Positions 5,840 through 30,095 of a DNA stretch of 45,681 nucleotides are shown piece after piece. Numbering within the stretch: position 1 is the first letter of the stretch; each line of letters starts with the position of its first letter. Under the pieces are notes generated by a model. It worked only from the letters and a program-made list of their open reading frames with translations. It had not been told where the DNA came from and did no database searches. This stretch comes from Folioceros fuciformis (lineage: Eukaryota), in NCBI GenBank assembly GCA_049999805.1, contig JBNGIO010006247.1, positions 154,817-200,497 on the forward strand. Reading direction: 5' to 3'. Both the position numbers and the translations under genes were made by a program.

Positions 5840-6280
5840 AGGTGGCCACTGTGTTGGAAGCCATTTGCTGCTCCACAGGTGTTTTGCTGAGAACGACAAA
5901 TACAAGAAATGTCTTGCTGGCCCATGCTGGGAATGATACCTGACTGCTGATCAACGCATTACAGCTTGGGCCTTTCTCGGCATCTCTCAAGTTTGTGCCT
6001 TTCTCGGCATCTCTGAAAGATTCTTCTGCACGCCTGATCGAGAAAACAGCCAGCCTGATGCTTACAGCATGGAGGAGTGCAACTTTTCAGCTCGTTAGCT
6101 GAAGAATTGGCACCTCTTAACGTCTAAGCCCTCGGCTTGCTTGTTAGTGATGAAGGCCACCAGTGCCTCTATCAGTGCATTTTCTTATACACGTTTGGCT
6201 CATTTGCAGATATCCGGTACTGGATTCAGGGATGAGCTTTACAGCATCATCAACAAAACGGCACTCCTCCTTGCTGCTCC
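5840..6280 (-). pseudogene. Decayed PLS-PPR gene fragment
   Basis: Minus-strand frames carry broken PPR-like words (DDAVKLI...CIRKC, KLHSSML, LDQACRRIFQR, EMPRK, NALISS, SQHGPAR) separated by frameshifts and stops. A 16-bp duplication, ctttctcggcatctct, lies at ~5972 and ~5999. Confidence 0.4.
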
Positions 6281-6663
6281 ACTTTGGAGAAAGTAAAAAT
6301 GTATTGCCTCTCATGTTCTTCGACTGCCCTACGGTCGTTGATGTAAAGCAGAAAGCAGATCGACGTACTGAACGGAGACCGCAAGGTGAAGACGCACAGG
6401 CGAGCGGTCGATCATGGGGAAGGTGGATGTATGGTGGATTTAAGTCGAGATGGGAGTTCGTCATCACGGTGCATGTCCCGTCCCAGACAGGGTTCGTCCT
6501 CCGTGATGGCGTGGCCTTAGGGCTGTACACTTGGCCTTGATGGCCGTCGGGTATCCATGTGCAAGCTCATCGAGGCAGCCCGTGTGGTGTGGTCTTGTAC
6601 AGTAGCTGGACATGCTGCCACACTCCGTTATTGGACTCGCCTTCCGACAGCGGTACTTGAGCC

Positions 6664-9600
6664 ATGGCCACAGTATGGCAGCCGGACTCGTTGTGGATCC
6701 AACGAACTGGTGTGTGTACAGGGAATCCTCAAGGAGCTCTCGCCCACCTTGTCATGGAGAATCAACCCCTAGCAAGCAAAGCCTTCAGGTGCAACAGTGT
6801 GAAGATCTCAGCACTTCCACTTCCGATAGAATGTGAGGGTGTGGACAGGTTTTCCAGCGATGGTCGTTGTCAGGAGCAGGAGCACTTGTGGCAACAATTT
6901 TTTCTGGACCCTGCCATTTGGTGGGACAACAGACGAGATAAGAAGAGCTCCAGGTCGCCTGACTTCCGACACAAAGGGTCCGGCAAGGTCCTGTGGTTAA
7001 ACAGCGTGTTTAAGCCAGCCTGGGTTGATGAGGAGCTCCTTTCCTTGGATGTGCAGATGAGTCATGGTTCCTCTTCGACCAAGGCCACCTCTCTGGATAA
7101 ACTTGAACCTGACAGGCGTGTAGGATCGAGAGTGCCCGTCATTACAGCTGTAACAGTGAGCACCCTATGTCAGCAGGGGAAGCTTTCTGAGGCCGTTGGG
7201 GCCCTGGAATCACTGGCGCAGACAAACTCTGCTATTTCTCAGTCTCTGTTATGCGTTGTGCTGAAACTGTGCACAGATAAGAAGGATTTGGTTTTGGGGC
7301 GACGAGTTCATGATCTCAGTGTCAAACTTGGCCACGAGTCGAAAGCATACTTGGCGAACCATGTCTTACGCATGTATGCCTGTGGAGGTAGGCTAGAGGA
7401 GGCCATGGATGTGTTCACCAGGGTAGGCAAGCCAGATGTCATTACGTGGGGTTCCATCATATCTGCATATGCTAAACATGGGAAACCTAACGAGGCCATA
7501 CACTTGTACCATGAGATGCGTAGGTCAGGAGTGAAGGCGAATGGTCACGTCTTTGTAGCTGCCCTTCAAGCTTGTTCATTTGCTGCTGACTTGGAATTGG
7601 GCAGAAAGGTGCACTGCGATATCTTGCACTGTGGCATTCCTCCTAACATGTTTGTTGGCAACTGTCTAGTGGACATGTATGCGAAATGTGGTGAACTGAA
7701 ACAGGCACGCCAGGTTTTTGACAGCATGGCCAAGAAGGATGTGGTGACATGGAATGCCCTGATGTCTGGGTATGCAAAATGTGGTGAAGTGGATGAGGCA
7801 CGCCAGATTTTTGACAGCATGACCATAAGGGACGTGGTGACGTGGAATACCCTGATTTCTGGGTATGCTGAGCAAGGGCTTGGACATGAGGCATTTGTTC
7901 TGTATGGACAGATGGAGCAGGATGGGCTGATTTTGGCCAACCATGTTACTTTTGCTTGCCTTCTGAAGGCCTGTGCATGCACTACTGCCTTGCAGAAGGG
8001 CAGGCAGCTGCACTCACTGATTGTTGAAAGGGGACTGCTGGATCACGTACTGGTTGGCAACGCTCTGGTTGACATGTACGCAAAGTGTGGTGAACTGGAA
8101 GATGCACGCCGCCTTTTTGACCGCATGCCCATAAAGGATGTGGTGACATGGAATTCCCTGATAGCTGGGTATGCAAAACGAGGTGAATTGAAAGACGCGC
8201 ACCAGATTTTTGACGGCATGAGCACGAAGAATGTTGTGACATGGAATGGTTTGTTTTCTGGGTATGGAGAGCAAGGACTGGAGCAAGAGGCGCTTGTACT
8301 CTATGAACAAATGGAGCAAGAAGGCCTCATTTTGGCAGATCATGTTACTTTTGCTTGCCTTCTGAAGGCCTGTGCAAGGACTGGTGCCTTACAGACGGGA
8401 AGGCGGCTGCACTCACAGATCGTGGAAAGAGGACTGCTGGATAACGTACTGGTGAGCAACTGCCTGGTAGACTTGTATGCGCAATGTGGTGAACTGGAAG
8501 AGGCACGCCATGTATTTGATAGCATGGCCACTAAGGATGTGGTGACATGGACTGCCCTGATATCTGGGTATGCTAAGCAGGCTCTCAGCCAGGAGGTGCT
8601 TGTCCTGTATGGAAAAATGGAGCAGAACGGCCTTATTTTGGCTAGCCATGCTACATTTGCTTGCCTTCTGAAGGCCTGTGCAAGCACTGGTTCCTTACAG
8701 AAGGGCAGGCAGCTGCACTCACAGATTGTTGAAAGAGGACTGCTGGATAACACATTGGTGGGCAACTGCCTGGTGGACATGTATGCAAAGTGTGGTGAAC
8801 TAGGGAATGCACGCCAGGTTTTTGACAGTATGAATACCAAGGATGTGGTGACATGGACCACCCTAATAGTTGGGTATGCACAGCAAGGACTGGGCCAAGA
8901 GGCGCTTGTTCTGCATGGACAGATGGAGCAAGGTGGTCTTGTTTTGGTTAACCATATTGCTTTTGCTTGCCTTATAAAGGCCTGTGCACGCACTGGTGCC
9001 CTGCAGAAGGGCAGAGAGCTGCACTCACGAATTTTTGAACAAGGACTGTTGGATAACGTAGTGATGGGCAACTGCCTGTTGGACATGTATTCGAAATGTG
9101 GTGACCTGGAAGATGCACGCCAGATTTTTGACAGCATGAGCACGAAGGATGTAGTGACATGGACAAGTCTGATAGCTGGGTATACACAGCAAGGGCTGGG
9201 CCAAGAGGCGCTGATTCTATATGGACAAATGGAGCAAGAATGCCACATTTTGGCTGACGATGTTACTTTTGTTTGCCTTTTGAAGGCCTGTGCGAGCACT
9301 GGCGCCTTACAGAAGGGCAAGCAGTTGCACTCACTAATTGTCAAGAGAGGACTGCTGGATAACTTAGTGGTAGGCACTGGACTGGTGGACATGTATGCAA
9401 AATGCGGTGAACTGCAAGATGCACGTCGGGTTTTTGACAGCTTGGTCACAAAGAATGTAGTGACATGGAATGCTCTGATAGCCGGGTATGCTGAGCAAGG
9501 ACTCGGTCAAGAGGCGCTTGTTCTGTACGGACAAATGGAGCAAGAGGGCCTCGTTTTGGCTGACGAGGTTACTTTTGTCTGCCTTCTGAAGGCCTGTGGC

Positions 9601-10983
9601 AGTACAGGCGCGTTACAGAAGGGCAGGCAGCTGCACTCACAGATTGTAAAACGAGGAGCACTTGATGACGTAGTGGTGGGCAACTGCCTGGTGGACATGT
9701 ATGCAAAATGTGGTGAGCTGAAAGACGCACGCCAGGTTTTTGACAGCATGGCCACGAAGAATGTGGTGACATGGACCGCCATGACAGCTGGGTATGCACA
9801 TCAAGGACTGGGTCAAGAGGCGCTTGTTCTTTATGGTCAAATGGAGCAAGATGGCCTGAATTTGGCAGACCATTTTACTTTTTCTTGCCTTCTAAAGGCA
9901 TGTGCAAGTACTGGTGCCTTACAGAAGGGCAGGCAGCTGCACTCACAGATTGTCAAAAGAGGAGTGCTGGATGACGTAGTGTTGGGCAACTGCCTGGTGG
10001 ACATGTATGCAAAATGTGGTGAACTGGAAGATGCACGCAGGGTGTTTGACACCTTAGGTACGAAGGATGTAGTGACGTGGAATGCTCTGATATCTGCTTA
10101 TGGTACTTGTGACGATGGTCACAGAGCGCTGGCTTGTCTTGAGGAGATGTTAGCTGCCGGCATTCGGCCTGATGGTACTACTTTTACTTGCCTCCTAGCA
10201 GCATGCAGTCATGAGGGATTGGTCCACGAGGGCCGCAAGCTCTTTGATTCCATGGCTAAACAGCATGGCATCAAACCCACTGTGGAGCATTACAACTGCA
10301 TGATTGATCTTTTTGGGCGCGCAGGCCATTTAAATGAGGCACTGAAGATGCTTCTGTCATACGAGGGTCATAGTAATCTTGTGGGCTTGACGGCTTTGCT
10401 GAATGCCTGTAAGAGTCACGGGGATATAGAGAAGGCGATGTGGTGTTTCGAACGTGTTGTTGGGCTGGAGCCCAAGGGGGCGTCTGCTTATGTTCTCATG
10501 GCCAATGCCTTCGCAGATGCAGGTAGGTGGACCGATGTGGACAGGATTGAGACGCAGAGAAGGATAGCAGGAGCTAACAAGAAACCTGCGGTTACGACCT
10601 TAGAGGTGAATAATCAGATCCACAGATTTGTGGTGGGAGAAAGGAGAGAGGATCTTGCACTCAAGGTGGAGAGCACGAATGCACGTCTGAAGCAGGAAGG
10701 AGGCCACATGCCTCACACAAAATTGGTGTTCAAGCCACTGTCTGAGAAGGAAAAGGAAGACGTGCTTTGTGGGCATGCCGAGAAGCTAGCCCTCGCGTTT
10801 GGTCTCTTGAATACTCCAGGTGGGACACCTCTGGTGGTGACGAAGAATCTACGCATGTGCAGTGACTGCCACAGTTCCACGGAGATTATGTCGAGGCTTG
10901 AACAAAGGAACATAGTTGTAAGGGATGGATACCGTGTGCATCGATTCTCAAATGGCTGTTGCAGTTGTAAAGGTCGACAATGA
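6664..10983 (+). CDS. PLS-class PPR protein, 1439 aa, intronless: N-terminal OSB-like PDF motif, ~31 PPR motifs, E1-E2 and a variant DYW:KP (GRP-like) deaminase-fold domain; candidate organellar U-to-C RNA editing factor
   Basis: Repeating P (VVTWxALIxGYAxQG), L (VTFACLLKAC) and S (VGNCLVDMYAKCG) motifs plus two SS motifs, then P2-L2-S2-E1-E2. The terminal domain reads KKPAVTTLEVNNQIHRFVVG...LCGHAEKLALAFGLLNTP...KNLRMCSDCH...RDGYRVHRFSNGCCSCKGRQ*. Confidence 0.95.
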   Translation: MATVWQPDSLWIQRTGVCTGNPQGALAHLVMENQPLASKAFRCNSVKISALPLPIECEGVDRFSSDGRCQEQEHLWQQFFLDPAIWWDNRRDKKSSRSPDFRHKGSGKVLWLNSVFKPAWVDEELLSLDVQMSHGSSSTKATSLDKLEPDRRVGSRVPVITAVTVSTLCQQGKLSEAVGALESLAQTNSAISQSLLCVVLKLCTDKKDLVLGRRVHDLSVKLGHESKAYLANHVLRMYACGGRLEEAMDVFTRVGKPDVITWGSIISAYAKHGKPNEAIHLYHEMRRSGVKANGHVFVAALQACSFAADLELGRKVHCDILHCGIPPNMFVGNCLVDMYAKCGELKQARQVFDSMAKKDVVTWNALMSGYAKCGEVDEARQIFDSMTIRDVVTWNTLISGYAEQGLGHEAFVLYGQMEQDGLILANHVTFACLLKACACTTALQKGRQLHSLIVERGLLDHVLVGNALVDMYAKCGELEDARRLFDRMPIKDVVTWNSLIAGYAKRGELKDAHQIFDGMSTKNVVTWNGLFSGYGEQGLEQEALVLYEQMEQEGLILADHVTFACLLKACARTGALQTGRRLHSQIVERGLLDNVLVSNCLVDLYAQCGELEEARHVFDSMATKDVVTWTALISGYAKQALSQEVLVLYGKMEQNGLILASHATFACLLKACASTGSLQKGRQLHSQIVERGLLDNTLVGNCLVDMYAKCGELGNARQVFDSMNTKDVVTWTTLIVGYAQQGLGQEALVLHGQMEQGGLVLVNHIAFACLIKACARTGALQKGRELHSRIFEQGLLDNVVMGNCLLDMYSKCGDLEDARQIFDSMSTKDVVTWTSLIAGYTQQGLGQEALILYGQMEQECHILADDVTFVCLLKACASTGALQKGKQLHSLIVKRGLLDNLVVGTGLVDMYAKCGELQDARRVFDSLVTKNVVTWNALIAGYAEQGLGQEALVLYGQMEQEGLVLADEVTFVCLLKACGSTGALQKGRQLHSQIVKRGALDDVVVGNCLVDMYAKCGELKDARQVFDSMATKNVVTWTAMTAGYAHQGLGQEALVLYGQMEQDGLNLADHFTFSCLLKACASTGALQKGRQLHSQIVKRGVLDDVVLGNCLVDMYAKCGELEDARRVFDTLGTKDVVTWNALISAYGTCDDGHRALACLEEMLAAGIRPDGTTFTCLLAACSHEGLVHEGRKLFDSMAKQHGIKPTVEHYNCMIDLFGRAGHLNEALKMLLSYEGHSNLVGLTALLNACKSHGDIEKAMWCFERVVGLEPKGASAYVLMANAFADAGRWTDVDRIETQRRIAGANKKPAVTTLEVNNQIHRFVVGERREDLALKVESTNARLKQEGGHMPHTKLVFKPLSEKEKEDVLCGHAEKLALAFGLLNTPGGTPLVVTKNLRMCSDCHSSTEIMSRLEQRNIVVRDGYRVHRFSNGCCSCKGRQ
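7830..10080 (+). repeat. Coding tandem repeat of ~306-bp P-L-S triplet units inside the PPR gene
   Basis: Near-identical nucleotide blocks such as cagaagggcaggcagctgcactcacagattgt and ggcaactgcctggtggacatgtatgcaaaatgtggtga recur every 306 bp, or 399 bp where an SS motif is inserted. Confidence 0.9.
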
Positions 10984-11481: not shown

Positions 11482-12640
11482 CTACTCCTGTGCCATGATA
11501 TCAGAGATGGATAAGGAGCCTGAATTGTCACGGTCCAGCAACTTGAATTCTCTCAGAATCTCGGTAATGTCGTCCTCCTCGACTTTGCCCAACTCTTTGA
11601 GCTTGAACAGCACGAACTCGGAGGACCTGAAGGCAGGGGATGAATGTTGCTGATGAGAACCCACAGTCGGGGAACAAGGAGATGAAGAGAGCAAAATTCA
11701 GCTCGTTTGCTCACCTCACTTTGCCATCGTTGTCGAAATCGGCAGCTTCCAGGTCTGAGATAGTTGTCTTTCGGGTGAGAACATACTTTGCCATGGCTTC
11801 GTGTCTCGATTCCGTTTGCATCTCCGCCAGAGCTAGAAAGAACTGGGCCACGAACAGAGTGCTGAGGAGGATCCAGGCTGAGCCGAAGAGGCGGCCTTGC
11901 CAGGTTCGGAAAGTTTGGTCACCGTAGCCCAGGGTCGTCGCTGTGACGCAGACGAAGTAGACTGCATCTATCAGGCTCTTCTCTTCCACCGTCATGAGGA
12001 CTACCAGTCCAGTGGCCAAGATGCCCAAAACCAGAAATCCTGTGAATATGGCCTTGACGTAAGCCTGCTTGACGTGAGACTCGTCCTTGGTTATGGCGTC
12101 GATGAGGTAACCCTCCTGCTTCATCACTAAGTAGTTGGCAGCACTGCTGAGCAGGATGCCCACAAGCCCAAATCCCAAAAACAGGTACACGATTGTGAAG
12201 AACTTGGCGGGGGTGCTGTTGGGGACAATATCCCCGTAGCCTACTGTGGTCATGGTGACGATGCAGAAGTAGAGAGCGTCCACCAGGTTGCTCCCTGTTT
12301 TGTGGCCCTCCAGGTCGCTGGAAGTGAAGTAGAAGAGGACAATGCCTGCAGCAAGGTAAGCTAGGAGAGCCACCAGGGCGGTTGTCAGGATAGCGGAAGT
12401 CTCCCTTTTCTGGTTGAAGGGCAGCAAGTCCACAGACTTGGCCACAGATGGAGGACATCGGTCTGCAGACTCGGTTGATGGAGATGAAATCGAGCGGGTC
12501 AGTCTCTTCTTGGGTGCTCCTGTGCTTCTGCTGAGGAGGTCCTTACTGGACTGGCTGAGCAGAGGTTCTTGTATGGCCGCATTCGCGGAAGTCACATTTC
12601 CGTGCCCAGACGCTTTGTCGGATTGCGATTGCTTACTCAT
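11482..12640 (-). CDS. TPK: Two-pore K+ channel (TPK family), copy A (exons 12640-11715 and 11626-11482)
   Basis: Four TM segments, two pore loops (TMTTVGYGD, TATTLGYGD), C-terminal EF hands (DLEAADFDNDGKVR-SSEFVLFKLKELGKV, DRDNSGSLS) and an N-terminal 14-3-3-like site (LTRSISSP). Confidence 0.93.
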
Positions 12641-13239
12641 TTTCCTCGTGCGTGTCTGCAGAGGAAAAATAAGTCCACTGTTCCGTGAAATGTGCCAGAT
12701 CTGAGCGAAGCCGACAAGGAGAAATGCGAACGCGCTCACCAACCGCTTGGACCCGGAAAGGTTTGAAATCGCCCGACAGCAGTAGCTCCACCTCGGAGTA
12801 GCCCCCGGTTGACACTGGAAACCCAGCAACGCAGGAGTCCGCTCACCTCATCCAGACCCTGTCTACTCGATTCTCCAGCGCAAAGAGCTGCTCCAGCTGT
12901 GCAACGCAGAGCAGCCTACAGTTTGGCTACGCCAGCTCCATGGCAAGTGGGTCCCGATGGTCTCTATTTGCAAGCCCATGACGCACGTTCACTAGTCTAG
13001 CAGGAGCATCTGTCACAATGCCTACAGCAGGATGTCCTGAAAAGTTTCGGGGCGCCGACCAGCTGATGCTGTGAGAAGCTTGGGCAGACACAACGTACTA
13101 GAATTTATACTCTCTTTCCCGCGCAGCAGACTTCAAGGTCCTGAGATCCCGCAAACCTCTCCATTCCATTGGCACACGCGTTCGCAAGTACGAACAAATC
13201 TGAAATCGCTACAGGAAAAGCAGGATTGCTGGACTGCTG

Positions 13240-14422
13240 CTATTGCCAGCCCAAACCGTGGCGATTCAAATCTGATGCAGACAAAATCCCCGAGCCATCC
13301 ACATCCAGAGCTCTGAATTCCTTGATGAACTTGTAGATGTCAGCCTCTGTGATCTTGCCCAGCTCTTTAAGCTTGTAGAGGACGAAGTCTGATGCTCTGC
13401 AGAAGCAACGAAAATGTGAGGCAAGTGAGGGCTGTGCAGGACCATGGTAAGGAGCTTAGAGAAGGAAGAATGTGAGACGGTCACCTGACTTTCCCATCCT
13501 CATCAATGTCAGCTGCCTCAAGATCTGCAGTGGTGGTCTTACGAGTGAGCACCCAGTTGGCAAGATGCTGCTGCTTCTCCTCCGTCCTCATTTCCACCAA
13601 CGACAGCAAGAGCTGCGTGACACAGAGAGTGCTGAGGATGATCCAGGCCGAGGCAATAAGCCGGCCAGTCTGAGTCTGGAAGCTGTGGTCTCCATAGCCA
13701 AGTGTGGTCATGGTGACACACGCGGCGTAAAATGCATCCAGAGTATTCTTCTTCTCCGCGATCATGAACAGAACCACTCCGAGAGCAAGCATGGTGAAGA
13801 CGAGTATGGTTGTGGTTAATACCTTCCAGTGGGCTGATTGAATGGGGTAGTCCACCCGCAGCTGCTCCTGGACGGATGCATCCGCCTTCCTGTAAATAGC
13901 TTTCAACAGGAATCCCTCCTGTTTCATCACCAGGTAATTAGCAGCCCTGCCCAGGAGGTAGCTGCAGAGCCAAAAGCCCCCTACGAGGTAAACGCAAGTG
14001 AGGATCTTCGCCACAGGCGTTGCCGGTGTGATATCCCCGTATCCGACTGTTGTTATGGTCACAATGCAGAAGTAGATCGCATCCACCAGGTAGCCTGTTC
14101 TCAGCCCCTGCAGACTGTTCGCAGCCCGATAGAAAACTAGCACGCCGGCAGCCACGTAGCCCAGCAACGCCAGAACAGCGTACACCAGAGTCCTGGATGA
14201 TAGATTCTTGGTCCTCAAGGGAAGAACTTGTAGGCTGGTCCTCACATTGCATCTCTCAGCATCGGTGTGAGCCGGAGCCGACTTGGCCCTCATGTATCTC
14301 TTCGGCCTTGGTCCATTGCGATCTGGGTCACCCTCTTGTGAACTGCCCGACTCGCCTATCAGAGGCTCGTGCAAAGCAGCAGCTTCCACAGGCAACGACC
14401 TGGCCTTCACCAAGTCGCTCAT
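13240..14422 (-). CDS. TPK: Two-pore K+ channel (TPK family), copy B (exons 14422-13485 and 13396-13240)
   Basis: Pore loops TITTVGYGD and TMTTLGYGD, EF hands DLEAADIDEDGKVR-ASDFVLYKLKELGKI and DVDGSGILS, and a 14-3-3-like site (MRAKSAP). The intron position matches copy A. Confidence 0.93.
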
Positions 14423-15295
14423 CTTGCTTCTACCCGGAGCCCGTGTCAGCTCCCAACATCATCCCCACTCAGATGCCAACCTCCTCCACTGCACTGGGAA
14501 GCACACTCCGGTACGCAATGCAGCAACAAAAATGTCATTCTCCTTTCCCTGCTCCCTAGGACTGTGCAAAGATGTGGGCGCTGTGCACTGCCCGAGTCCT
14601 GTCCTCCCTTCCTCCATTCCTCCCCAGGTGCACAGCAACAGTGCCCTCCGCATTGTGCTCTGTCCAGCAGCCCCACCGCCGGATCGGTCGGCCCTGTGCA
14701 CAAGCAAGACGACGAGCCCCGGCCAAGTAGTCTCAACACCATACTCCCATCCTCCGACACGGGCATGGCGACATCTGGGTGCCCCTCTGTCCATTTCCCC
14801 AGGTCAGTGACCGCCCAGTTAAAACTGGTTTCACCGCGGCAGGCTACCAGTTCGGTGGACAAGGAGACGGTTGTCGGTTGTGGGCTTCCACCCAACTGCA
14901 GCTTCAATCTGCCGGCAGTCGTCAACCGCATCCCTGCATTTGATCCTTTACGCTGAATGTGGCAGAGCGCAGGGAGGATTCCGGCTACCCTGTGGCTGGC
15001 GGTGGATGCTGCCCTTGCCCTTGAACCGAGACCAGGGCAGATCGCTCGGAAGTTGCTGCGATCTGCTTATCGAGCCACACGCAGCGTGGGATCCGGAAGT
15101 ATACCTGGGCCAGCCCGGGGGACAGGTTTAGGGTTGGGCGGGAGAGCGCAGATTGCAGATTTGAGCGGGGCGCGGTGATCCGAGATAGATAGCATGGGAA
15201 TTGGCGGGGATTTGCGTTCAGGCTCGGGTTTGGAAACATGTTGACGGCTATATATGCGTCGGGTTCTCGAAGGCAGCAGGACATGTTCTGTGGAG

Positions 15296-19538: not shown

Positions 19539-20318
19539 TCAGGCAGCAGTGGCTGCAGGCAAACTGGGGATGTAGGACTCCAGCATGAGCCGTGTTGGGT
19601 AGGGGTTGGTGACATCCACAATCAGGTACGTGAACTTCCAAGTCCTATCAGCTTTGTCTTTGTACATCTCGCTGTGCACCTTGCCAGCCCCTTGTGGCCC
19701 GCGGATGTAAAACACCACCTCACATCTCTCCACCCCATCTTCATCTGTCCATGTCCGGTTGGCGATTCGCTGACGAGCAGCCCGGTTTCTGCTCTCCTGC
19801 CCGTAGCCGGTGATCGGTGATCCCAACCGCACTGTCACTTCATTGTCTTTCTGCACCCTTTCCAGTGCCTTGCCGAAAATCTTATACTCCTTAGGCTGGA
19901 GAATCAGCTCCTTGAACACGGCGTAGGCGGCTGCCCCTGCCACGGCCAACCCTGCCAGAATCACAATGCTGTAGGAAGCGCCCTCTGCAACAGTGACCGG
20001 TTTCTCGGGGATCCTGTCCGTCAGCGGATCGAAGGGGTCCTCCTCCTGCGTGGCTAGGTCGCCTTGACTGCTCTCCTTTTGAGTACTTGCTGCCCGCTGA
20101 AAACGGCGGAGGCCTCCAGCAGAGTAGGGGAATCCGCAGCCCACATCACGAAAGCTTCGCGGAAACGGTTGCGGGGCCCTGGAGCATCCAGATCCAGGAA
20201 CCTGGTGCAGCTTCCTTGTATACTGCCCCCCTCCGATTCCATGCCTCACGATGGCGGGATGCACTGCTGATCCAGCCTGCAGCTTCCGGAGGACCTCCCG
20301 CCAAGTTCTCGAAAACAT
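19539..20318 (-). CDS. TIM21: Mitochondrial import inner membrane translocase subunit TIM21, single coding exon
   Basis: Arg-rich presequence ([13 protein letters not shown]), one TM segment ([23 protein letters not shown]) and the Tim21 domain [56 protein letters not shown]...FTYLIVD. Confidence 0.92.
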
Positions 20319-22834
20319 AGCGGACAGTGCCACAACAAGCAGCTGCGCTTGCAACAATGACCAGCAACTCGATGTCCTCAATCACATAATTTCTCAGCCA
20401 TTCTTGTCATCAAATGTCTGTCTCTGCGAGCTCTGCGATGTTGCATCATTGCATCCGATGTCCTAAAACCTAAACCCACGAGCATCTCTCGGGGATCAGA
20501 GCGCTGTGATTGCCAGCCCAGTCAGACACCCAGTTCCATCACACAACGGACCTCCCAATGCTCAGACCAGTGGCAGGCAAAGGAAAGGTTGCCACAAGGC
20601 TGGGAACACACGCAGCGTGAAATTCTTTCACCGGAAGAAACCAGTAAACCTATTCGTATGGGTCGAGGTCCAAAGACCTAATTTCAACTTGAACCGACTC
20701 ACTGCCAGTTCTCAAAATGCGAACAATTCCTGCTCGGACGAGATCATATGCTTTGCAAGGGATACACACAGGATACATCTGAATGCATTTGCACCCTGGA
20801 CCAGCTCGCGTTCTAATTTGGTGCTCTCATTTGCCACATGATTCAGGGCTCACAGCCGTAGTAGGATTGTATTCTTGTTCAGGGCGGAGGAAAAAAATTA
20901 AGGAACATGAGGCATTTGGTGAGTTCACGAGTCCACGGAAGGCTTGACACAAATGAGTAAGGCATGGAAACCAGTGTGTTTAGTATGGCTTCCTTCGTAG
21001 GATTGACCAATGGCTTGATTTGGTAGTTGCCATCGTCTTGAGTGCCATGGCAAGTCTTGCACCCGCAGGAATGGCCTTCCAAGATGTGGTCTGATCTGGT
21101 TTATGTACAGAAGGACCAATTTTGATGCATAGGTACAAGAAGAAGACGGAGGATTTGCTCATTGGAGAGTGTTCCCTCGAACATGTACCTCCTCCGCGTT
21201 CGTACGACGTTGGAAGTAATTGGTGAAGCCTTGGAGTGGTGTGATCCTCTTGAGAACCTCGATGATCCCCGCGTGGATTGTGTACTGGAAACCTGAATGA
21301 TTTGCTCCGACAACGCACGTATGTAAATTGTCTTTGTAACGGGAAATGAGAAATTCTCATTTTCCTCAGGTTACCAAGTCAGACACAGTTACTCGCAGGG
21401 TGGAGTTGGGAATGGCAATCCAAATGAGGAAGGCAGCCTCTGGCGATTCCAAATACGGGACGCAACTCCAGCTTGTGCAGAAACGGTGTAATACCACAGC
21501 ACGGAATGGACAGCTCCATTTTTGTTTTAGGTTTATGGGACTTAGGGTACGGACGCGCGAGGAGGAGATGCTTTTGAGCAGCTTGGGACCCGCTGCGGAT
21601 GAGGCTGCCGTCAAGCATCCAGCCCTCAGCGGTCGCCCACTCCGGGAGATTTATTCTTCACGATTGCAATTTTAGCCATGGAACCGTTGCGACAAAGTGG
21701 CCTCACATCTGAAAGGGGGGCCCGCGTCCCGAAGCTCGTGGCAGGCACACGAGTACGGGCCGCGTCATTCAGCATGATTGATTCATTGATTCATTGATGG
21801 GTAGTGGATACATGCGAGCACCCGAGTGTGCCTCAAGCACGGAAGTTGGGGAGAGCCGCAGGATTGGCACAGAATAGTGATTTTTTGTCACGAGTTCGGG
21901 CCCGCGAATTGGAGGCTACGAGCACCGTGGGAGCGAGGCGTTCAGCTCTTGCAAGGATTGGGTGTAGAATTGGCGCAGGGCTGGGAGCAGAGTGCGTGGC
22001 CAAGGAATTTTTGGCGGTGTGCAGGATTGTCGGAATGATTCTTTTCCTCTGCATTGCTGGAGGGAACAGGGCGTGGCTGCAATGTTGAACAGGATCGTAC
22101 GGAGTCGGATGCGCCCCTCTGGTGTCGGGATTGGCAAAGCTAAGAGCTGATTGAGCTCTGTCTTGGGCTAGTTTGGTCACAGCGAGCCGTGGGGAGGTGC
22201 GCCCGCATGTGTGATGGATGGCTGTTGCGTGACCCGCGCTCGGGTGAATAGCTCCTTGTTCTGGGCAATAATGGATCCGCGGGAATTCAATGCCTTTACG
22301 TCTCTTTCTGTTTCCGTCCAGAACCTGTTGGATGGCAAAGGACTTGCCTTTCGTCAGTTGCAGAATTCGAAATAATATTTGGGACTTCGTTGTGGCGATC
22401 GTGCGCTGAAGGCGTCAACAGGTATTCAACGTGAGTCTCGATGAGATGGTTGGTATTGTTGCTTGCAAATTGGGGTGCCATCTGAAGATATCCCTTCTGG
22501 AAGGTTAACCCGTGATACTACGGTTGCGTTGGATTTACTGGATTTTGTCGGTGTGTGAATCTGCTGAGCCAAATCTCTCTGATGTGTGGAAACATGATGA
22601 GGAGCGAAGTTTCTTGTAGACTATCAGGTATCATCTGATGTGGAGAGAGAGCTGCTTAAGGTTTTTTTAGAAGTAGTAGCTTCAGTACACGGATGTACTC
22701 GAGATTTTCAACAAGCTGTTCAGATGTTTCAGACGTTCCCAACGGAAGTATGGAAGAGTGCCTGTGGTTGATTTTTTTAGGCCTTTTGCTTGTTCTGACC
22801 TGCGTTCCTTCCTGTGCTCCGCCAGGTCCGCGAA

Positions 22835-27048: not shown

Positions 27049-27281
27049 GTGTGGAGCTTATGGATCACATGTAAAGCTGGGCCGCCAATGATCTATTGCT
27101 GCAGAGCGATTGTACTATAGTTGTACCAGTATTAATTTTCTTCTATACGATGCTGTTTGTGGCGTTGCAACTCAAGTGGTGTAATTGGCGTGCTACTTGT
27201 AAGGTTTGCTTTTGCCATCTTCCGTGGAATGGAGGATGAGAAAATTCGTTTTGTTCCGGAAACTTGTCACCTGAGAGGTCC

Positions 27282-29677
27282 TCAAGCTGTCCCTGCATTC
27301 GGAACATCGGCTGAGTGTCCGATAATGCCCCCGCCAAGATCCGGGAAAGTGTCTTGGCCGGGAAGAGGGTTACAGTTCCATCGTCTTCCACCTGGAGCGG
27401 ATATGTTAAAAGATGACTTCTCATGTCGACCACGGTGTCATCTGCGTAAACGGCCCAGTTATCATCGCCCATCTGCTTCATTCGTTGAGCGCATTCTAGA
27501 GTGTCAGGATCGGCGAAACAGGGCTCCAGAGCTCCGGTGTGCTCTGCCCAAAGCGACAGTCGGTATCCATAAACTTCGCCTTTAGGGTGACCTCCCTTCT
27601 TTCCCCAAGTGTAGGAGGGTTGGTATGCACCAATGGCAATCTCGGTATCGCGGTCCCCAGCCATAGATCGTTGATTTATATTGGCTGAACCCAGGATTAC
27701 AATTTCATCGTCAACAATCATTCCTTTAGAGTGGACAAATATGATGAACCGTCTAGACTTTAGAACAGTCTGGGTTGAGTTGGTTGGTGGTATACGCGGG
27801 CAGCGATCAGATGCAGACACAGTCTCACGGGTTCCCAGACAGAGGAACAGCAGGTAATCCTGAGGCTTGACCTTTTCATGCAGTTTTTTCGTCCGCAGAG
27901 ATTTAGCAATTATGGTGTACATCATCTTCATGGTCTGAGACTGGAAGAAGAGAATCTCCTGGACAACAGCTGGATGCATGTCCCTCCGGAAACATGGGCA
28001 TCACCACGTACACCATAAACCTCTCACCAGCTTTGATTTTGCCTGTTATCTTTAGCGCCAGTTCCATGGGAATCAGGTGATCTGCTTTATCTTTCCTGTA
28101 ATCTGGCCAATTGTAAGAAGACCCCACAAAGTATTGGTTCTCAATGTAGATGAAACGTTGAGCACGCCGAATAGCCTCCACATAAGCTAAATGGACGCTA
28201 TGATCTTTTTCCTGAAGGCCCCTGAAAGACGACATGCTGTCTTTCTGCTTCTTGAAAGTTATCAGGGAAGCATACGCAGGACCCTGAGTCGATAGATCTG
28301 AAAATCTGGGCGTGCCATGTTTCAGGATCATTGTCGGGAACAATATAGAGCTTGGTGTCGCCAATCACTGGAGAAGCCTTCACAGTCAAGCCCCACCACT
28401 GCTCGAAATTGGTCAAAACATCCTACGCTGCAGGGCCCTCAAGTTTGCAATGCAGGTCGTACCAAGGCTCTCTCGGACCGCCGTTTTCTTCCACATTGGG
28501 AAACATAGCTTGGTGATAGTCCCCCACGTGCACATTGTCCACGGTTCTGAACAGACTATGCTGTGGAGTGTTAAAACGCCCTCCACACAAGTCCAGGCCA
28601 CCCAGGAAGGCAACCAATTGGTGTGTCAGAGTTGGGTACAACAGCATCCACCAGCACAAAGTTCTGGTGGTGTGTGTACATGCCTGCCACGACCTTCTGC
28701 CGAAAGCAGCCTATCTTGGTATCTGTGGAACGAGTAGAGAGACGACACAAAACATTCGTGCCCTTGAAGAAGTTCATGGTTTCTTCGCCACGTGTGACCG
28801 TCACTCCTCCCCCTGTCACATTCTTGCTGTCATTCGAGGTTGTGTCGCGCCAAACTAGCAATTGCACCCGGACTCCTTGACTTTTCTGTGTCAAGAGCTC
28901 TCCTAAGGAAATTTGCTCTCCACCAGGAATGCTTGGGGAAGGTCGTGTCAACTTTAACTCGTGCCAAATCGACCAGTCGGCGATGAAAACAAGGTCCTTT
29001 GCCTTCAATAATGGATTGCTGATTTCTTCCCAACACCTTCCACGCTCAAAGTTCTGCCCCCGTTCAAGAGGAATGTCAGGCAGACCTGGCTCGACATGAG
29101 CATCCTGAAACAATCTCAGCCGGCAACCTTTCCTAAGAGGGAAGTAGACCCTGTGTATACCGTGGTACTCTGGACCTGCGCCAACACCTTTAGCAGATGG
29201 GACAGCAAGGAGATGGACCGACAGTCTCAGCTGAGCATCGTCATGCAAAAGTCGTCCTCCTGGCCCAAGAATGTCGAACCAGCCCTCCATCTTCCTGCCC
29301 AGTGATAGATCCTTAGCAGAAATATTCACACGTCCAATTGCTCCAGCTACTATGGAGACATCATCGCCTACTTTGAAAATCAGATCCTCGGCACGATGGG
29401 CTACAGGTATATAAAAGTGCTCATGCCAAACTGGATGCTCTTGATTATTCCTGACCTGAGTCCTTGCAAGTCTTGCACCAGCGAGAGCGACTGAAACATA
29501 AACATCACAGGAGCGGTACCCTGCTGACGTCGGTAAACAACTGCGACAGACATCGAGGCACTGCCGGCATCTCCCAGCTAGCTCATCCAAATCTGGAAGA
29601 CATTTTGCCTCAAGCACCCATACATCCAGTGTTCCATGCAGGAGCACAGAATCTTTTTGGTTGAGTATAGCTGCCAT
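27282..29677 (-). pseudogene. PLD: Intronless C2-domain phospholipase D with disabling lesions (probable processed pseudogene)
   Basis: C2 domain (LLHGTLDVWVLEAKCLPDLD), [61 protein letters not shown] and [29 protein letters not shown]. It carries four frame changes (~28620, ~28220, ~27980, ~27368), an in-frame TAG at 28423-28425, and a first HKD motif that reads HHQNFVLVD. Confidence 0.85.
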
Positions 29678-30095
29678 TTCAAGGACTACGGCTCCTGTAC
29701 CATGCCAGCAGAAGTTGCTCAGGGATTACATTTTCGTCCTCACTGCGTCGACAAAGATGTGTTCATCTTCCAAGTGCGAGAAACAGAAAACCACACCAGG
29801 AGTTCAACAAGCCAGGAAAAACCATCAGATAAGGGGTCACCCTATGTGAAACCTGATGGGTTTGCAACGACTGATCATGGGACAAGGCCTACGCACCAAA
29901 GAAGCTGGAATACTTCCAATAGTCATATCCAGTGTCAGGGAAATGCTTTCCTCAGGTTAGACATCAGTGATCATGTGGAACAAAACTTGGAGCAGAGTGC
30001 TGTGGCAAAGTCCAAAACCTTTAGAATTGGCCAGCGCGCTCATGATCCATCTACCAATCTTGTTAAAAGCAGTTCCCAGTTCCAGTCGAGAAAAG

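Follow-up and report, generated by a model that had tools for sequence, protein, structure and literature searches.

What might a motif of plant organellar single-stranded DNA (ssDNA)-binding (OSB) proteins be doing at the head of an RNA-editing factor? The question is raised by a gene on a stretch of 45,681 nucleotides (nt) from Folioceros fuciformis (assembly GCA_049999805.1, contig JBNGIO010006247.1, positions 154,817 to 200,497). We refer to this whole 45.7-kb stretch, which has a G+C content of 50.1%, as the window and number it from its first letter. The product of the gene joins a Pro-Asp-Phe (PDF) motif of the OSB type to a long array of pentatricopeptide repeats (PPR) and a DYW:KP domain, and the comparisons described below suggest that the PDF module is probably an anchor for single-stranded nucleic acid. 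A preliminary description, made from the letters alone, had located the motif ahead of the first PPR in the same intronless open reading frame (ORF). This placement was exact: the 51 residues that it quoted are the translation of 6886-7038 on the forward strand and correspond to amino acids (aa) 75-125 of one uninterrupted, intronless ORF of 1439 aa plus stop. Just one codon separates the ATG of this ORF (6664) from an in-frame stop, and because of that stop the frame cannot be extended upstream without splicing. A six-frame motif scan of the entire window detected a single copy of the PDF motif.

An editing factor of the DYW:KP type

By its domain content, the encoded protein is an RNA-editing factor of the PLS class of PPR proteins, and its catalytic domain is of the DYW:KP kind. 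Pfam recognized 22 stretches of PPR repeats in the 1439-aa protein (PF01535, E = 1.1e-169) followed by an E motif (PF20431), the succession that characterizes PLS-class editing factors, and a DYW domain (PF14432) at the end of the same chain, as anticipated in the preliminary description, which had also implied that this deaminase-fold domain was of the KP kind. According to published descriptions, DYW:KP domains start with KP in place of the PG box, carry HAE (specific to KP) in place of HSE, contain a CxxC, measure 132-133 aa, have a conserved Lys88 and M92 and, in hornworts, show DRH and GRP ends (PMC9478123, PMC11845758). All of these features recur in the last 133 aa of the window protein, with KP at 1-2, HAE at 65-67, K88, M92, CSDCH at 93-97 and a terminal GRQ that is a one-residue variant of GRP. 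The KP start, HAE, K88, M92, the length and the GRQ end together place the gene among the PLS-E-DYW:KP factors of a GRP-like subgroup. Judged from this GRP-like end, the plant is probably a hornwort. Going by published work in which U-to-C editing was shown for designer KP proteins (PMC9478123, PMC11845758), its domain would be of the U-to-C kind. Compared with the GRP subgroup of PPR-DYW:KP factors from hornworts, lycophytes, and ferns, and with the designer proteins KP2 and KP3, the window protein shares the PLS array, the E motif, and the 133-aa KP domain with HAE, K88, M92, CxxCH and a non-DYW end, but it terminates in GRQ whereas they terminate in GRP.

The PDF module is homologous to the repeats of OSB proteins

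No Pfam model covers the PDF motif (0 families on the N-terminal 212 aa), and its affiliation was established by other searches. Queried with these 212 aa, one search matched a single protein out of 279 candidates (E = 3e-6 for 5.8e9 sequences). The match was a 304-aa angiosperm protein carrying an SSB domain (PF00436), and BLASTP located the similarity on the C-terminal motif of that protein (28/71 identities, E = 2e-17). Word-indexed protein searches retrieved a few candidates (31 for the whole protein and region 60-140, and 4 for the motif alone against longer proteins), none of which scored. This emptiness reflects the index, since phmmer, run exhaustively with aa 68-135 on 1.84e9 representative proteins, returned 654 matches at E <= 1e-3, of which 187 had E <= 1e-10 and 17 had E <= 1e-30. 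The best 150 of these 654 were inspected, with 504 weaker matches outside, and together with the first match they formed a set of 151 proteins that were classified by BLAST and a local profile. The set comprised 81 proteins with an OSB-type oligonucleotide-binding (OB) domain, 11 with PPR arrays, and 59 with PDF repeats only. In total, 406 PDF modules were counted in the classified proteins and the window protein, with 1 to 13 modules per protein.

The preliminary description had identified the motif as the OSB PDF motif and proposed a hidden Markov model comparison with OSB PDF repeats. This comparison gave a significant match. Specifically, a profile built only from the 194 PDF motifs of the 81 OB-bearing, OSB-type proteins matched the window protein at aa 73-125 (E = 1.8e-14 at Z = 1.84e9) with 68.4 bits, a score that has to be discounted somewhat, though not by tens of bits, because the 81 proteins were themselves chosen as best matches to the window motif. 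The best score among shuffled controls was 10.9 bits (20,000 shuffles of the N-terminal 212 aa, 14,368 scored). The profile envelope (aa 73-127) reaches slightly beyond the segment first noted. Two relatives carry OSB names in their sources, namely P0006 ("protein OSB3, chloroplastic/mitochondrial-like", Chenopodium quinoa) and a member of the P0104 cluster ("Protein OSB1, mitochondrial", Vigna mungo).

The PDF motif is defined as about 50 residues with the Pro-Asp-Phe signature and the flanking elements W..WWDNR..K and KHK..LW..P.W (PMC6963530, PMC4166229), and the window copy agrees with this definition at all conserved positions. The consensus residue is present at every strongly conserved position (W76, P83, W86, D88, R90, K93, P99, D100, F101, H103, K104, L110, W111, P118, W120, V121, and L125). 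We conclude from these comparisons that the module is a true OSB-type PDF motif, homologous to the C-terminal repeats of plant organellar ssDNA-binding proteins.

The window protein is nevertheless no OSB protein, because it lacks a domain of the OB-fold/SSB type: it was not matched by a profile of 74 OSB-type OB domains that retrieves 81 of the classified proteins, and Pfam detected no PF00436 in it. The arrangement also differs. In OSB proteins the motif is C-terminal and present in one to three copies, whereas in the window protein it is single, N-terminal, and precedes a PPR array and a DYW:KP domain. As a separate observation, tandem arrays of PDF repeats with neither OB nor PPR domain are widespread among the phmmer matches (examples are P0009, P0019, and P0011). 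A dinoflagellate (Cladocopium sp.) has such an array of 7 repeats, the green alga Astrephomene one of 4, and a metagenome protein one of 11. The Kingdonia protein P0003 bears an OB domain and 13 PDF repeats.

PDF-PPR proteins in ferns and lycophytes

The same combination was found in 11 of the 151 classified proteins, all of which begin with at least one PDF module and continue, after a short linker, with a PLS-type array. Six representatives come from ferns (two each from Adiantum capillus-veneris, Ceratopteris richardii, and Pteridium aquilinum) and two from lycophytes (Selaginella moellendorffii and Diphasiastrum complanatum, one each), and three more fall outside these named ferns and lycophytes. 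Like the window protein, the fern and lycophyte proteins (e.g., Selaginella XP_024517303, Ceratopteris KAH7429238 and KAH7415344, Adiantum KAI5076972, and Diphasiastrum KAJ7231026) start with PDF modules, one to three of them, followed by the short linker and the array. Unlike it, those that are full-length have no DYW domain, and their last motif is E-like. A Pfam scan of 10 proteins (9 of the 11 representatives plus one longer isoform) confirmed PPR repeats in all 10 and a DYW domain in just one of them, P0136, which has both E and DYW and ends in GRP with HAE and K88. A specific tie between the PDF motif and DYW:KP, which the preliminary description had raised, is not supported, since most of the PDF-PPR relatives scanned are devoid of DYW. 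As far as the compared proteins go, the PDF-PPR fusion is a conserved architecture in ferns, lycophytes, and relatives of the window protein, and no one-off.

Two more short proteins look like N-terminal fragments of PDF-PPR genes, namely P0125 (judged by eye) and P0111 (named "pentatricopeptide repeat protein" in its source). Another two, P0083 and P0092, are short proteins of 162-164 aa with a long presequence and one PDF module, whose motif clusters with those linked to PPR arrays. Each may be a single-PDF protein in its own right or the first exon of a PDF-PPR gene. Neither seed-plant nor moss PPR proteins were seen among the best 150 of the 654 phmmer matches, a result that bears only indirectly on the view in the preliminary description that canonical angiosperm editing factors lack the motif. 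Since proteins with a single motif score near the bottom of these and 504 weaker matches lie outside them, absence from other plant groups is not established by this result.

The module is well conserved within the family. Across the window protein and 11 aligned PDF-PPR relatives, identity to the window sequence amounted to 49-60% in the PDF segment, compared with 23-51% in the first PPR motifs and 0-36% in the presequence and linker. On this alignment, no part of the N-terminal third is under stronger constraint than the PDF module. In most PPR-linked motifs, the conserved P-x-W-V is preceded by two additional residues (x-K) and followed by a D. In a tree of 155 motifs, which is poorly resolved because it draws on only 55 columns, the window motif fell in a supported set of 15 motifs (Shimodaira-Hasegawa-like approximate likelihood ratio test, SH-aLRT, 96) composed of 11/15 PPR-linked motifs plus 4 from short PDF-only proteins. 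The fern PDF-PPR motifs share this set with the window motif, save both motifs of one Adiantum protein, which lie outside it together with the two lycophyte motifs. A tree joining all 15 PPR-linked motifs was not rejected by the approximately unbiased (AU) test (p-AU 0.823). These results are compatible with one ancient PDF-PPR fusion.

On the one hand, the PDF and PPR halves are each well known. On the other hand, their combination is apparently undescribed. In the literature that we searched, neither the PDF motif nor OSB proteins were connected with PPR proteins; the searches did not extend to the 2020 surveys of PPR proteins in seedless plants or to supplements, where an earlier mention is possible. 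The co-occurrences of "OSB" that were inspected were spurious, deriving from the author name Osborne or from a table row. The available portion of a 2026 kingdom-wide survey of editing-factor domain fusions (PMC13386178) contains neither "OSB" nor "PDF", and an N-terminal PDF module is not mentioned in the available portion of the DYW:KP paper PMC9478123. In databases, the PDF-PPR entries are annotated just as PPR or hypothetical proteins.

Predicted fold and N-terminal anatomy

AlphaFold2 predicted a compact module. A model of aa 66-138 based on a 40-sequence alignment reached a mean predicted local distance difference test (pLDDT) of 90.9 and a predicted template modeling score (pTM) of 0.75, with a helix, short strands, and a second helix. 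In a larger model (aa 1-420, 12-sequence alignment), aa 65-133 were again confident while aa 1-64 and 130-157 had pLDDT < 50, and regular PPR helix pairs started at aa 157. The module would thus be an independent domain on a flexible tether, since it is a confident block between low-pLDDT stretches, and a linker of about 28 residues, predicted to be disordered, would connect it to the first PPR motif.

Comparisons with known structures revealed no relative of the module. A PDB sequence search matched only a designer PPR, at aa 147-206, and left the PDF motif without a match, and the ESM Atlas offered no usable match. Foldseek queried with the module model against the PDB gave 0 matches at E <= 0.001, and among 48,161 chains compared with VIA-align the best Z was 4.4, for helix-pair look-alikes only. 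No fold family can be named or excluded for the predicted model, and neither novelty of the fold nor function follows from these searches. Given that the module is predicted to fold confidently and resembles no solved structure, an experimental structure would be new.

Possible role of the module

What is known of OSB proteins suggests how the module may act. According to two reviews (PMC6963530, PMC4166229), the PDF motif of OSB1 can bind ssDNA by itself, and double-stranded DNA and RNA are less favored ligands of OSB1/2 than ssDNA is. By analogy, we consider the PDF module of the window protein to be a sequence-nonspecific anchor for single-stranded nucleic acid of some kind, at a probability of roughly 60%. 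Within this reading, an ssDNA or nucleoid tether and an auxiliary contact to RNA appear about evenly matched. The PPR array would supply the sequence specificity and the PDF module would hold the single strand nonspecifically. On bound RNA, the N-terminus of a PPR array points to the 5' side. Because of this polarity, a tethered PDF module would reach upstream RNA or nearby ssDNA of a transcribing nucleoid. In the ssDNA option, the factor would be recruited co-transcriptionally at the transcribing nucleoid, and in the RNA option the module would make a contact upstream of the PPR footprint. Tethering of this kind would raise the local concentration and the on-rate at nascent transcripts. A helical-repeat RNA reader combined with a second nucleic-acid-related module is also seen in PPR-SMR and similar proteins, in which the accessory domain is C-terminal and is not known to be related in sequence to the PDF motif.

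Several points weigh against an anchor of this kind. The ligand of the PPR-linked modules is carried over from OSB1/2, and through reviews. The fold, as modeled, gives no functional hint because the module has no solved structural relative, and the conserved tryptophans and phenylalanines may just form the core of a very small domain instead of stacking on bases. The presequence is unlike a typical organelle transit peptide, with a net charge of -1 over 72 aa. Finally, P0136, the closest relative with the same GRP-type DYW:KP end, has a degenerate PDF motif (aa 82-138) that scores 40.7 bits, against 68.4 for the window copy, and has lost the near-invariant residues W86, N89, and P99 (window numbering). 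This loss means that the module may be dispensable in some paralogues, and the degenerate, low-scoring motif implies that constraint on it varies among them.

The degeneration in P0136 would also be expected if the module were a decaying relic of an old fusion without present function in this gene, or a segment cleaved off with the targeting presequence. The module is a mere 72 residues removed from the start of the ORF, and the atypical character of the presequence would suit such an account. We regard this as quite improbable. All conserved positions are intact in the window copy, the PDF segment is better conserved than the adjoining PPR motifs across ferns, lycophytes, and close relatives, and the module is predicted to be well folded while aa 1-64 ahead of it are disordered. 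In several relatives, moreover, the module begins 5-25 residues from the annotated N-terminus, which leaves no room for it as a presequence. Somewhat more credible, although still unlikely, is a role as a protein-protein docking or oligomerization unit that would bring the editing factor to nucleoid proteins, of the OSB type or others, or join PPR proteins in pairs. As many as 13 PDF modules are strung together in tandem and can thus sit side by side, AtOSB2 has been reported as a tetramer (PMC6963530), and a compact, hydrophobic-rich predicted fold on a flexible tether is typical of docking domains. However, the PDF motif of OSB1 is enough for ssDNA binding on its own (PMC6963530), and the invariant polar and basic residues D88, R90, K93, D100, and K104 fit a nucleic-acid site at least equally well.

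The fact that a single chain contains a deaminase-fold domain as well as an ssDNA-binding motif, together with the preference of OSB1/2 for ssDNA (PMC4166229), could also be taken to mean that the module redirects the enzyme to DNA. In that case it would hold the ssDNA of R-loops or replication intermediates while the DYW:KP domain modified DNA bases instead of, or besides, RNA. We deem this highly improbable: the module and the deaminase are separated by a PPR array of about 1100 residues, which belongs to a class of RNA readers, and the published DYW:KP activities act on RNA (PMC9478123, PMC11845758). The distribution of DYW among the scanned PDF-PPR relatives (1/10) argues in the same direction, since with most of them lacking a catalytic domain the role of the PDF module cannot depend on the deaminase.

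A bolder extension of the anchor reading, which we put forward as speculative and rather doubtful, is that PDF-PPR proteins form an ancient class of editing and RNA-processing factors of hornwort-like plants, lycophytes, and ferns, the three lineages in which editing is massive and reverse editing occurs. In organelle nucleoids, these proteins would be loaded on the ssDNA of R-loops or transcription bubbles, which would couple editing physically to transcription, and seed plants would have lost the coupling module.

If the PDF module binds ssDNA as in OSB1, it would give experimental access to the place and time at which organellar editing factors encounter their substrates (i.e., the nucleoid, during transcription), and this in precisely those plant groups whose editing sites number in the thousands. 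Should it bind RNA instead, the PDF motif would need to be reinterpreted as binding single strands in general, which would bear on the action of OSB proteins themselves. Engineering of DYW:KP domains into U-to-C editors is under way, and a small putative affinity module that occurs naturally ahead of such arrays is a candidate add-on for them.

Features of the gene and its surroundings

The coordinates of the gene and its parts are given in Table 1.

Table 1. Parts of the PDF-PPR gene, in positions of the window
Feature	Position	Strand	Description
Whole ORF	6664..10983	+	1439 aa; PDF - PLS PPR - E - DYW:KP editing factor
N-terminal presequence, aa 1-72	6664..6879	+	predicted disordered, non-conserved, net charge -1
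PDF module, aa 73-127, enclosing 6886-7038	6880..7044	+	profile envelope; predicted helix, three short strands, helix
Flexible linker, aa 128-156, from PDF module to first PPR helix pair	7045..7131	+	pLDDT <50 at aa 130-157; 0-36% identity
PLS-class PPR array, aa 157-1251	7132..10416	+	PF01535; includes 306-nt tandem amplification 8169-10096
E motif, aa 1252-1314	10417..10605	+	PF20431, E 4.1e-14; last 8 residues overlap the start of DYW:KP
DYW:KP domain, last 133 aa (1307-1439)	10582..10980	+	PF14432 at aa 1347-1437, E 2.7e-32

Tblastn with the N-termini of six relatives gave similarity only from about 6823-6874 onward and revealed no conserved coding piece upstream of the ORF. An upstream ORF in the same frame (6232-6540, forward strand) begins with a stretch rich in Ser, Thr, and basic residues. 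A targeting exon joined from upstream via an intron is possible, a reading to which the tblastn comparison lends no homology support. In sequencing run X3, which we guessed to be RNA, contigs were identical to 5960-6308 and 6444-6898, the latter reaching 13 bases into the motif. Contigs of X3 and of the DNA run X1 alike end at 6898. Many other contigs, at least 88% alike, cover the stretch from about 6872 on in all four runs, and a few have loose ends at 6875. They hint at module DNA that is common to paralogues and relatives; we did not use them as evidence, and their summed depth is not a copy count.

Within the PPR array, the tandem amplification listed in Table 1 is visible at the DNA level, with 6.3 copies, 80% matches, and about one P-L-S triplet per unit. 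This amplification indicates that the long array grew by recent internal duplication. A second tandem array in the PPR region, with a period of 399, lies at 7654-8573.

The neighbors of the gene are ordinary nuclear genes, all on the reverse strand (11714-12847, 13484-14458, 19542-20381, and 27146-29725). They comprise two tandem genes for two-pore-type ion channels (PF07885 twice in each), a TIM21 homologue, and a phospholipase D whose C2, PLDc, and PLD_C domains are encoded in separate exons.

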